The notes beneath the pieces are model-generated. The model worked only from the letters and a program-made list of their open reading frames with translations, did no database searches and was not told where the DNA came from. The position numbers and the translations under genes are program-made. Shown in pieces: positions 18,283 through 57,539 of a DNA stretch of 64,000 bases. This DNA is from a virus, in IMG/VR virus record IMGVR_UViG_3300034141_000082. One strand, 5' to 3'. Within the stretch, counting starts at the first letter, position 1. Each line of letters starts with the position of its first letter.

Positions 18283-18494
18283 GTTGTGCTCCTCTCTGAT
18301 CTCTGAATGTGGAATCTCCGAAATGCCTTCACGAGCAAGATGCCCACGCCGAAGGCGATGACGCACCGCACGATGGTGCGTGCACCGAGAACGCTGAGCG
18401 AAGTCCAGGACACAAGACCGTCCACGATGACGTCGTATCCGAGAAAGATTGCCGCTATCGCGATGTCGAGCGCGAGCTCTTTCTTCCAGCTCAT
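18279..18494 (-). CDS. Small two-TM membrane protein
   Basis: MSWKKELALDIAIAAIFLGY...; ATGA overlap; lower GC. Confidence 0.55.
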   Translation of the reverse strand: MSWKKELALDIAIAAIFLGYDVIVDGLVSWTSLSVLGARTIVRCVIAFGVGILLVKAFRRFHIQRSERSTT

Positions 18495-18580
18495 CGGTCG
18501 GGCTTGGTCAGCCAGATTATGAACGCAAAGAATGCAAGAACCGCCAGCACCATGATGACGTAGGCCGTGTTGTCGTCCAT
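18491..18580 (-). CDS. 29-aa single-TM peptide (not in ORF track)
   Basis: MDDNTAYVIMVLAVLAFFAFIIWLTKPDR; TGGAG RBS; directly after the tRNA-like element. Confidence 0.6.
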   Translation of the reverse strand: MDDNTAYVIMVLAVLAFFAFIIWLTKPDR

Positions 18581-18604
18581 CTCTGATCTCCAATCTCTCG
18601 GTAG

Positions 18605-18650
18605 TGGACGCGGGCGGGCTCGAACCGCTGAACTTCCGTCAAGCGCATCC
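18605..18650 (-). ncRNA. 46-nt tRNA-like minihelix (acceptor stem + T-arm, no D or anticodon arm)
   Basis: GGATGCG/CGCGTCC 7-bp stem with one U.G; T-stem GCGG/CCGC; T-loop TTCGAGC; discriminator A; 14-nt linker. Confidence 0.65.
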
Positions 18651-18660
18651 TCGTACACTT

Positions 18661-18706
18661 ACATTATCGTCTCGCCAGCTCCGCACTTGATAGGCCATTT
18701 AGGTGA
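18661..18706 (-). promoter_or_regulatory. Repeated promoter-like motif (TCACC-N3-ATGG N25 CGA-TAATGT)
   Basis: Same box and spacing as four other copies. Confidence 0.65.
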
Positions 18707-18709
18707 TGC

Positions 18710-18880
18710 TCACACCCAGAAGACCATCATGCCTGCGGCGAAGAACACGCAGCCGCAGAAGAAGCCGAATGCGAATGGCACCAGCCACTTCTCCATCGCG
18801 GACCCTCCATCATTGGTTCGTCGGGCCGGCACCTCGACAGGTGCCGGCCCACGGCTGTGCCGCCCCCGTGGGGCAGCCAT
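18710..18880 (-). CDS. Small membrane protein
   Basis: C-terminal WLVPFAFGFFCGCVFFAAGMMVFWV. Confidence 0.55.
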   Translation of the reverse strand: MAAPRGRHSRGPAPVEVPARRTNDGGSAMEKWLVPFAFGFFCGCVFFAAGMMVFWV

Positions 18881-44554: not shown

Positions 44555-45631
44555 ATGAGAATTCACGTCGTCTCCCTGCCGCACACCCAGGTCTCCCGCG
44601 AATTTGAGTGGTGCGCGTACACCGCGAAATGTAGGCGGCTCGCGAAGATGATGGCGCTCCAGCAGATCCCCATGTTCCTGTACGCGGGCGAGCTCACCGA
44701 CGCCGAGACGAAGGCCAACCTCGCCGAGGACATCTGCATCGTGGGCCCGGAGGACCGCCTGAAATGGTACGGCTCCGAGCAGTGGTCCGAAGATCAGATC
44801 TTCCACCACTGGGACCGGACGCACGACTCCTGGACGCGGATGAACCACACCGCGGTGGACGAGATCGCGTCCCGCTGGCAGGACGGCGACATCCTCGGCG
44901 TCATCGCCGGCGTCTGCCAGGAGCAGATCGCCACCGAGCTGGCCGAGCGCGGCATCAACGCCCCGGTCGTCGAGTGGGGGATCGGCTACACCGGCGTGTT
45001 CGCGCCCTACCGGGTTTTCGAGAGCCATGCCCACCGGCACCACGTCGCCGGCCTTCAGCGCGACGACGACTTCCGCCCGCTGGACACGGTGATCCCCAAC
45101 GCCTTCGACGTCGCCGACTTCATCTACCGGCCGACCCTGGGCCCGGTGGCCGACACCAGCTACCTGCTCTACCTCGGCCGCATGATCGAGCGGAAGGGCC
45201 TGGACACCGTGGCCCACTTCGCCGACCTGGGTCGCCACCTCGTTTTCACCGCCGGCCAGGGCGACATCCGGGTCGCGAACGCCGTCCACTGCGGCGTGGT
45301 GCGGGGCAAGGCCAAGGCCCGGCTCATCGCCGGCGCGCAGGCCGTGCTCGTCCCCACCCGCTACGCCGAGCCGTTCGGCGGGGTGGCCGTCGAGGCGATG
45401 ATGAGTGGAGTGCCCGCGGTCACGACGAACTGGGGCGCGTTCACCGAGACCATCCCCGCCGAGTACCGCGCTTCCACGCCCTACGAGTTCGAGCAGGCAG
45501 TCGACCGGGCGGCCATCGAGGACCGTCACAATTTCCAGCAGCGCGCCTGGGCCCGCTTCTCACTGGAGCCGGTGTCGAAGATGTACGCCGAATACTTCGA
45601 GAAGGTCTTGACCCACCACCGCTCCCGCTGA
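44555..45631 (+). CDS. GT-B (family 4-like) glycosyltransferase
   Basis: YLGRMIERKG, P..Y.EPFGGVAVEAMMSGVP..T.WGAFTE. Confidence 0.9.
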   Translation: MRIHVVSLPHTQVSREFEWCAYTAKCRRLAKMMALQQIPMFLYAGELTDAETKANLAEDICIVGPEDRLKWYGSEQWSEDQIFHHWDRTHDSWTRMNHTAVDEIASRWQDGDILGVIAGVCQEQIATELAERGINAPVVEWGIGYTGVFAPYRVFESHAHRHHVAGLQRDDDFRPLDTVIPNAFDVADFIYRPTLGPVADTSYLLYLGRMIERKGLDTVAHFADLGRHLVFTAGQGDIRVANAVHCGVVRGKAKARLIAGAQAVLVPTRYAEPFGGVAVEAMMSGVPAVTTNWGAFTETIPAEYRASTPYEFEQAVDRAAIEDRHNFQQRAWARFSLEPVSKMYAEYFEKVLTHHRSR

Positions 45632-56450: not shown

Positions 56451-57539
56451 TCACGCGGTCCCGCGCAGTAACCGAAGGTTTCCGCCGTTCTCGGCCGGCG
56501 GGGTCAGCAGTTCGGGGCGGTGCTCCACCACGTAGCAGTCGCGCTCGTCCTCGCAGTCGTGCATGGGGTGCAGCTCCCCGGTCATCGAGCTCCACCCGCA
56601 CGCCACCTCGGCCAGCCCGACCCGCACGTAGGTGCTGGTGACCGTGGAGCTCATCGAGTGCCCGGCCCACGTGGCCGCCACCACGAAGCTGGACGCGCGC
56701 TCCATCCGGGTGACCGCGGTGTGCCGCATCCAGTGGCAGGAGACGCCCAGCTCGGCGCCCCACCCGGTGATGGCCCTCAGCACGTCCCAGTCGTCCTCCA
56801 GGCGGTGCCTGGACCAGTCGTAGAGGGTGGACGTGGGTCGGGCCAGCTCGGCCGCCAGCGACGCCGACAGGGGCAGCACGCGGGTCTTGCGGCCCTTCTC
56901 GGTCACCATCACCGTGCGGGTCGCGGCCCGCACCGCCCCGGGCTCCAGGTTCAGCAGGCCCTCCCGCCTGGACCCGGTCTCCAGCAGCCAGCGCAGCATC
57001 CACATCGTGCGCTCGTGGTGGCGGGTCGCCACGGTCAGCAGTTCGGCGGTCTGGGTCCGGGACAGCGCGTGCCGCTCGGACTGCCCGCGGGCGGGCTTGG
57101 GGACCGACAGGGCGACGTTGCGCTCGACCAGGCCGTCCTTCAGCGCCGCGCCGAACAGGTGCCGGGCCGCGGCGACGGCGTGCTCGGCCGAGGACTGCCC
57201 GCCGTGGTGGCGCCGGCGGACCGCGGTGTCGCGCGCGGTGCGGGCCAGCTCGGCCACGTCGCTGGGCACGATGTCGCGCAACGGACGCTCGCTCCAGCTG
57301 GACTCGATCAAGGTCAGGGCCCGGCCCCAGGCGCTGATGGTGCCCGGCGTCAGGCCGGATCGGATGCGGGGAAGGTAGTCACCCACCGTGATGTCTGCGG
57401 TCATGGTCCAGGCATCGGCACGCCGTCCGGCGGCCTTGAACGCCCCGCCACCCACTGTGAGTAGCCGATTACTTTTGCTGGTGTCCGAGGGGGGACTCTG
57501 CCGGTCACTCTCAGTTGCCTGTCCGTTTCGTCGTGTCAT
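56451..57539 (-). CDS. int: Tyrosine recombinase/integrase (alternative start 57404)
   Basis: Catalytic R (TGSRR), K (EKG), HxxR (HWMRH), H (WAGH), Y (STYV). Confidence 0.88.
   Translation of the reverse strand: MTRRNGQATESDRQSPPSDTSKSNRLLTVGGGAFKAAGRRADAWTMTADITVGDYLPRIRSGLTPGTISAWGRALTLIESSWSERPLRDIVPSDVAELARTARDTAVRRRHHGGQSSAEHAVAAARHLFGAALKDGLVERNVALSVPKPARGQSERHALSRTQTAELLTVATRHHERTMWMLRWLLETGSRREGLLNLEPGAVRAATRTVMVTEKGRKTRVLPLSASLAAELARPTSTLYDWSRHRLEDDWDVLRAITGWGAELGVSCHWMRHTAVTRMERASSFVVAATWAGHSMSSTVTSTYVRVGLAEVACGWSSMTGELHPMHDCEDERDCYVVEHRPELLTPPAENGGNLRLLRGTA
57479..57497 (-). other. Candidate attP core matching a tRNA 3' end (tRNA-Leu(GAG)-like)
   Basis: AGTCCCCCCTCGGACACCA = end of T-loop + CCCCC + CTCGGAC + A + CCA; next to or inside int. 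The tRNA-Leu assignment is from memory. Confidence 0.75.

Follow-up and report, generated by a model that had tools for sequence, protein, structure and literature searches.

On the minus strand of a viral DNA stretch of 64,000 nucleotides, analysed here as a whole and referred to as the window, a 46-nt segment in front of a small peptide gene can be drawn as a tRNA-like minihelix consisting of an acceptor stem and a T arm, with neither a D arm nor an anticodon arm. The locus raises the question of where such an RNA came from and whether it is still active. The window represents a 68% GC temperate actinophage-like genome that encodes a Prim-Pol helicase, DnaE, ThyX, WhiB and an integrase (56451-57539). 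No tRNA-related enzyme (RtcB, CCA enzyme, SmpB) was found among 30 window proteins compared with Pfam or 10 neighbour proteins compared with PHROGs only.

Layout of the element and its operon

The element occupies positions 18650-18605 of the minus strand, and direct reading of the window gave exactly the sequence described in an earlier note on this DNA. The same agreement was found for the -10 hexamer TAATGT (18666-18661, 10 nt before G1), for the 14-nt linker between the acceptor 5′ strand and the T arm (18643-18630), for the absence of an encoded CCA (the A at 18605 is followed by CTA) and for the 29-aa peptide gene right after the element, whose ATG at 18580 lies 24 nt downstream. The canonical T-arm and acceptor geometry claimed in that note was borne out in the seven acceptor pairs and in the consensus T loop TTCGAGC, but not in the T stem, which carries an A.C mismatch at 49:65. 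The acceptor pairs include A3-U70 and U4.G69, one of the seven thus being U.G; A73 is present, and G3.U70 is absent. UUGAC-GG directly follows a single C in the window copy, which lacks both a GG-containing segment of 5-8 nt before UUGAC and a P2 helix. Fold prediction indicated that the linker could form either of two alternative 3-bp mini-hairpins. The features of the locus are collected in Table 1.

Table 1 Features of the locus in the window and contigs carrying TLD-only mini-tmRNAs
Feature	Position	Strand	Observation or basis
Upstream small membrane peptide gene, 28 aa (or 56 aa from 18880)	18710..18796	-	75% identical to the L127 orthologue
Upstream box TCACC-N3-ATGG of the phage-specific promoter motif	18695..18706	-	six intergenic copies in the window; alignment of paralogues and orthologues
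-10-like GATAATGT, CGATA block of the promoter motif	18661..18668	-	CGATA invariant in 7/7 aligned sites
Acceptor-like 5′ strand GGATGCG	18644..18650	-	all 7 positions pair with 18606-18612
14-nt linker C-UUGAC-GGAAG-UUC	18630..18643	-	10 of the first 11 nt as in L127
T-arm-like stem-loop, loop TTCGAGC	18613..18629	-	four G-C pairs and A.C mismatch 49:65; aligned by Rfam to the tmRNA T arm
Acceptor-like 3′ strand CGCGTCC and discriminator A	18605..18612	-	identical in L127, the L145 mini-tmRNA and four full tmRNAs
CTA tail instead of CCA	18602..18604	-	same ACTA end in the DS6A TLD-only tmRNA and several viral mini-tmRNAs
Shared leader with GGAG ribosome-binding site	18581..18601	-	GAGAGATTGGAGAT 14/14 identical in L127
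29-aa membrane peptide gene, first gene of the operon	18491..18580	-	GC3 23/29; L127 orthologue; recorded gene call
IMG/VR contigs with TLD-only mini-tmRNAs (L349, L383, L390, L426, L435, L357, L423, L440, L444, L456)			T-arm scan

The promoter-like motif in front of the element is phage-specific and occurs in six minus-strand copies in intergenic parts of the window (10502, 18706, 29471, 30868, 31782 and 33146). An alignment of five window paralogues with the orthologues of two related phage contigs, L127 (4738) and L128 (1812), showed that TCACC, TGG and CGATA were invariant. The motif can be written as TCACC-N3/4-TGG ... AGT ... CGATA followed by a shared AGAGAT-rich leader, and leaders similar to that at 18581..18601 were also seen behind the paralogous window promoters. 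A seventh match of the regular expression, at 56713, was rejected as lying in coding sequence without a CGATA box, and a generic sigma-70 scan did not call the motif. From the spacing between TAATGT and G1, transcription would start 2-8 nt before G1, which would place the element ahead of any other structure in the transcript. The operon that starts with the 29-aa peptide gene, the gene call on record for the locus, extends to ThyX. The element itself is non-coding, as the in-frame 55-aa open reading frame has a GC3 of 12/26 before its internal ATG, versus 23/29 in the 29-aa gene. A perfect 12-bp G+C-rich hairpin without a T tract was also noticed at 18823-18850 (minus strand), between the 80-aa gene and the small peptide gene. 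It falls inside the 56-aa reading of the latter, if that reading applies, explains weak look-alike matches to Rfam sRNA families, and is not retained as a hairpin in L127.

Standard callers and chance expectation

ARAGORN, which the earlier note had named as the check that the element is not a standard tRNA, called no tRNA or tmRNA in the whole window and likewise none in L127. At gathering scores, Rfam returned nothing at the element in the window, and its tRNA family gave no match even at E <= 10. Both the window and the L127 forms are overlooked by these standard tools. A minihelix scan was run with five requirements: the T loop had to read TTCRANN, G53 and C61 had to close it as a pair, the T stem could contain no more than one mismatch, the 7-bp acceptor had to be perfect and the linker could not exceed 30 nt. 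It produced one match in the window against 0.155 expected by chance per window on both strands, as estimated from simulated sequence of the same composition, and because of this expectation the element sequence alone is only suggestive. The same scan of approximately 0.9 Mb of unrelated viral DNA gave one match against 0.67 expected; the pattern is uncommon in arbitrary phage DNA.

A 96-nt homologue in a related phage

Megablast, blastn and tblastn searches with the region and the neighbour genes detected no relatives among cultured phages. Within IMG/VR, a scan with the 80-aa neighbour protein gave no relative, a ThyX scan led only to unrelated low-GC phages, and a scan for the promoter box gave single chance matches only, and the 5′ motif gave nothing but chance matches in IMG/VR and genome contigs. 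Seven further metagenomic contigs of the same phage were identical in the compared stretch, including the element where they reached it, which left no variation within the population to exploit; a third variant contig (L461) ends short of the element. Protein searches with two neighbour genes led to related phage contigs, of which L127 (Logan SRR16016013_17019) was the closest, with neighbour genes 79-91% identical in DNA and flanking small peptide genes 65-75% identical.

The search in related phages suggested by the earlier note revealed a homologous element at L127 4904-4999, a 96-nt tRNA-like RNA at the same operon position, before the same leader and the orthologous peptide gene. That note had regarded missing stem conservation in homologous loci as grounds for giving up its reading, and the L127 locus keeps both stems. 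The next relative, L128, has an orthologous promoter followed directly by the leader, the element being absent. R1, a covariance model based on the single sequence, found no second copy in the window and none in L128-L137 or L338-L342. The element is thus carried by two phage lineages only, and therefore a covariation test is impossible.

The two copies match at both ends. The 5′ 18 nt are identical at 15/18 positions, including the 93% identical 14-mer GCGCTTGANGGAAG, and the 3′ 25 nt (18605-18629; T arm, acceptor 3′ strand and A73) are identical at 22/25 (E 2.6e-7). Across the core, 37/43 positions agree, a divergence of 6/43 or 14%, compared with 25-35% in the immediate flanks and 15%, equal to that of the core, at third codon positions of a neighbouring gene. 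Sequence constraint on the window core is possible on this comparison of core with flanks. The L127 form has a perfect 7-bp acceptor stem with G3.U70, A73, a perfect 5-bp T stem and two extra hairpins at the places of the anticodon and variable arms, giving four arms and no anticodon loop of 7 nt. Its place is between two cistrons: a 28-aa membrane peptide gene, absent in the window phage, has its stop codon 9 nt upstream.

Relative to L127, the window copy is without approximately 50 nt, and both inner hairpins are gone. Position 49 is A in the window and G in L127, and the first T-stem pair (49:65) is broken in the window. In the 5′ strand, A3 and U4 of the window stand against G3 and C4 of L127, and pairing is preserved in both cases. 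One base after the L127 promoter comes GATGCG, followed by a leader, the 28-aa peptide gene and only then the element. The GGATGCG of the window may accordingly be promoter leader that was fused to the element by a deletion through similar 7-mers; the GATGCG match is collinear with the promoter match, but it is short. The A3 and U4 differences from L127 may thus not be point changes. As for the direction of change, a deletion in the window is presumed rather than an insertion in L127.

Folding of the two forms

The L127 form folds at -57.3 kcal/mol (z -3.0), with none of 200 shuffles folding as well, and its acceptor and T-arm pair probabilities are 0.92-1.0. For the window copy, the tRNA-like fold is predicted at -14.1 to -15.4 kcal/mol versus -17.7 for a competing inner fold. 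In isolation, its outer (acceptor) stem has a pair probability of 0.90-1.0, its T stem makes up approximately 9% of the ensemble, and its z against shuffles is -0.74. When 92 nt of the mRNA are folded together, shuffled sequences do as well (z +0.5), and the acceptor 3′ strand prefers the AUGGACG start region of the 29-aa gene. CGUCCA (18606-18611, minus strand) is complementary to UGGACG (18574-18579, minus strand) of that gene, and the predicted pairing hides the AUG.

Resemblance to tmRNA and to TLD-only RNAs

The best Rfam family for a short stretch of the window was tmRNA (RF00023), at 10.5 bits over the T arm and 3′ strand only, and the L127 form reached 11.8 bits with both ends aligned; neither attained the gathering score of 47. 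For comparison, the TLD-only tmRNA of mycobacteriophage DS6A scored 43.2 bits and a mini form in contig L145 scored 63.6 bits. Apart from one gut-phage tRNA-Gln group and one chance coding region, the matches of the 3′ 24-mer pattern GCGGTTCGANNCCGCCCGCGTCCA in metagenomes were tmRNAs. Four of these were full-length (100-112 bits), another was permuted, one was cut by a contig edge so that its 3′ end remained (22 bits), and the last was the 126-nt mini form of L145. The four full-length tmRNAs start with GGGCGCG, followed by 5-8 nt containing GG and then UUUGAC-RGGAA, at the place of which the mini form has UUUCGAC-GCCCG. The corresponding starts are GGATGCG-C-UUGAC-GGAAG in the window and GGGCGCG-C-UUGAA-GGAAG in L127. 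From these 5′ and 3′ motif matches, both halves of the window and L127 elements would therefore resemble a tmRNA TLD minus the GG stretch and the P2 helix. A tmRNA ancestry would rest on short motifs, with scores far below the gathering score.

The mini form itself (L145:1516-1641, minus strand; Ga0129299_1025235) is a 126-nt mini-tmRNA with an ACTA end and no ARAGORN call. It shares its acceptor stem with the L127 element and has no evident tag reading frame. A terminator-like hairpin stands before it, and the genes on its two sides encode pentapeptide-repeat proteins.

A scan of IMG/VR for T arms of the L127 type yielded at least 10 TLD-only RNAs of 74-92 nt in eight distinct sequences, none of them called by ARAGORN (contigs in Table 1). 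All have G3.U70, their acceptor positions 4-6 covary, and several end in ACTA. A covariance model (R2) was built from nine phage TLD-only RNAs, all nine with G3.U70. It scored the window copy at 13.1 bits (E 2.9, with the wrong 5′ strand), L127 at 28.4 bits and a real tRNA control at 25.2 bits. R2 does not separate TLDs from tRNAs, and because the real tRNA scores so close to the L127 form, membership in the TLD-only family is not established. Two of the defining features of TLD-only RNAs are missing from the window copy.

Origin and possible activity of the window element

Two origins unrelated to a phage RNA gene were considered. A chance resemblance within a GC-rich intergenic hairpin would fit the number of scan matches expected per window and the failure of the window copy to fold better than shuffled sequence. 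It is nevertheless very improbable, since the element is intergenic and on the sense strand and the L127 homologue has both halves together with the canonical features; this homologue excludes the chance reading in practice. The other origin is an attP core or a 3′ piece captured from a tRNA or tmRNA gene of the host; integration into such genes is frequent among temperate actinophages, and the phages carry the 3′ ends of these genes (PMC10865867). This origin has only the slightest probability. The exact 22-mer is missing from one genome each of 185,579 species, which excludes a host tRNA or attP origin in practice, and it is missing from IMG/VR as well. Moreover, 38 kb separate the element from the integrase, which has a candidate site of its own, and an att core would not include a 5′ strand, as the element does.

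Comparison with L127 suggests instead that L127 and the window have the same phage RNA gene as orthologues, in a fuller form of 96 nt in L127 and shortened in the window. By its sequence, the L127 form appears closest to the tag-less TLD-only mini-tmRNA of DS6A. We consider the chances about even that the window element is the deletion-scarred remnant of a mini-tmRNA-like tRNA-like gene with alanine identity, the fuller form of which survives in L127. One deletion in the window phage would have removed the inner hairpins of the fuller form, and another probably fused the promoter leader to the element, removing the 28-aa peptide gene. The remaining 46 nt can still be drawn as an acceptor/T-arm minihelix that would stand at the extreme 5′ end of the operon mRNA. 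The RNA would be transcribed from the conserved promoter and, if folded, could be excised by RNase P and 3′ tRNA-end enzymes. Excision would be expected of a folded RNA because RNase P, RNase Z and the CCA-adding enzyme are established to recognise the acceptor-T coaxial stack. AlaRS requires the G3.U70 identity pair, and since the window copy has A3-U70 it should not be an AlaRS substrate and presumably cannot accept alanine.

The most likely reading is that the window copy is a remnant and, by itself, has little or no activity. The signs of this are A3-U70, the A.C mismatch at 49:65, the small share of the T arm in the ensemble and the weak z values, both alone and in the mRNA context. Against it, all 7 acceptor pairs are kept, the T loop still fits the consensus, and neither the discriminator A nor the ACTA tail has been lost. 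The description of the element in the earlier note as a promoter-proximal tRNA-like minihelix holds insofar as it is tRNA-like, non-coding, promoter-proximal and different from a standard tRNA, but L127 shows it to be a cut-down version of a larger RNA gene. A decayed relic, the outcome which that note had named as speaking against its reading, is at least as likely as the active processing tag or decoy it had proposed, because the window copy has lost G3.U70 and one T-stem pair and its fold is not thermodynamically favoured.

Two kinds of activity were weighed against the remnant reading. Modelled on the proposal for DS6A, RNase P and 3′ trimming might free the 46-nt RNA as a minimal decoy, an uncharged mimic of the TLD or tRNA top half that binds SmpB and dampens trans-translation during infection, or that targets RNase P, the CCA-adding enzyme or EF-Tu. 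Such a decoy seems unlikely, though it deserves consideration. The acceptor stem, the T-loop consensus, the UUGAC that matches the tmRNA D-loop analogue, A73 and the ACTA tail are kept, the core is better conserved than its flanks, and 47-nt minihelices of the same layout occur in other viral contigs with differences that preserve pairing; TLD-only RNA was also reported to inhibit tmRNA with or without the capacity for alanine charging (PMC4131195; PMC11915505). These points are set against the missing GG-containing segment before UUGAC, the missing P2 helix and the weakened T stem, a fold favoured neither over alternatives nor over shuffled sequence, the 13 bits obtained with R2 and the lack of the element in other relatives. 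In a related proposal, which we also regard as improbable, the 46-nt RNA would be the smallest natural and still active derivative of a tmRNA TLD, an uncharged (A3-U70) sponge for SmpB or another tRNA-elbow binder. On this view the first 50 nt of an early phage mRNA would give rise to the RNA, RNase P and 3′ trimming would release it, and it would stay uncharged throughout; the sister phage would carry, in its 96-nt form, a chargeable version of the device.

The activity might otherwise lie in cis, with the element serving as an RNase P/RNase Z processing tag that sets the 5′ end of the peptide-ThyX mRNA, as a 5′-terminal hairpin that protects the mRNA from 5′-end-dependent decay, or as a mask in which the 3′ strand alternately covers the start codon. 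A 5′ UTR function of this sort is doubtful, on a par with the sponge. In its favour, only a few nt separate the predicted transcription start from the element, the ATG follows 24 nt behind it, the context fold allows pairing between its acceptor 3′ strand and the start region, and the acceptor/T stack is an established recognition site for RNase P; in L127 the element lies between two cistrons, shortly after a stop codon. Yet other paralogous promoter-leader units and the L128 orthologue work without the element, the context fold is no better than shuffles, and the promoter-proximal position is not conserved in L127.

Two states of the locus thus exist in nature: at 96 nt the RNA is well folded and has alanine identity, and at 46 nt it lacks this identity. 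Comparing the two could reveal what processing, charging and SmpB binding each require. Should the short form prove inert, the locus would simply illustrate the decay of such genes.

Comparison with known systems

Acceptor/T-arm minihelices are substrates of RNase P, the CCA-adding enzyme and AlaRS, and plant mitochondrial t-elements and mascRNA are tRNA-like processing elements that are cleaved. With these the window element shares a 7-bp acceptor on a T stem-loop, the lack of D and anticodon arms and a place in a longer transcript beside a coding region. It differs in that their cleavage is demonstrated, whereas the window element is known from its sequence, and in its A.C mismatch at the stacking junction and its 14-nt bulge.

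Similar minihelices were observed in other viral DNA. Viral contigs of approximately 42% GC contain 47-nt acceptor/T-arm minihelices (L352:10703-10749, L417:227-273 and L442:9463-9509) in which the linker measures 15 nt and the tail is T-rich; one variant differs at two acceptor positions with pairing kept (A-U to G.U, C-G to U.G). A 54-nt tRNA-like minihelix lies in the unannotated right genome end of the cultured Arthrobacter phage TripleJ (L343:383-436; NC_049470 ~44980-45033) and also occurs in phage Kukla, with six acceptor pairs and one mismatch, a 22-nt linker containing a small hairpin and a perfect T arm. These RNAs are like the element in size and layout, with 7-nt strands and 15-22-nt linkers, and in having the GGCGG/CCGCC T arm of the L127 copy. 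However, their acceptors are unrelated, they have no UUGAC, and they stand in low-GC contigs or at another genome position; the likeness seen is one of layout and T arm.

Compared with the TLD of bacterial tmRNA (RF00023), the 3′ 24-25 nt match several real tmRNAs, exactly in the case of the L127 copy, and the acceptor strand followed by UUGAC-GG in the window is like the UUUGAC-RGG of tmRNAs. In contrast to them, the element has no mRNA-like domain, pseudoknots, GG stretch before UUGAC or sheared G.A pairs, and the window copy has no G3.U70.

The closest known system is the TLD-only (CDS-less) tmRNA of mycobacteriophage DS6A described by Hudson, Lau and Williams in 2014 (PMC4131195; see also PMC11915505), which we located at L118 28478-28560, with 43 bits (RF00023), G3.U70 and an ACTA end. 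When expressed in E. coli it is reported to inhibit endogenous tmRNA (PMC11915505). The proposed target of this decoy is SmpB and trans-translation rather than defence nucleases. Like it, the window element is a small phage RNA without anticodon or tag, built of an acceptor stem and a T arm, intergenic in an actinophage and ending in ACTA, and the L127 copy also shares G3.U70 and A73. The DS6A RNA differs in its 83 nt, its 12-nt D-loop analogue and its P2 helix, as against 46 nt, A3-U70 and no P2 in the window; from the L127 form it differs in that the latter has two inner hairpins in a cloverleaf-like layout and a far lower tmRNA score. The kind of RNA is thus already known from one published case, reported to block the host ribosome-rescue system. 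What is new here is the lineage, the position inside an mRNA leader and the pairing of a long, chargeable-looking form with a 46-nt form lacking alanine identity.
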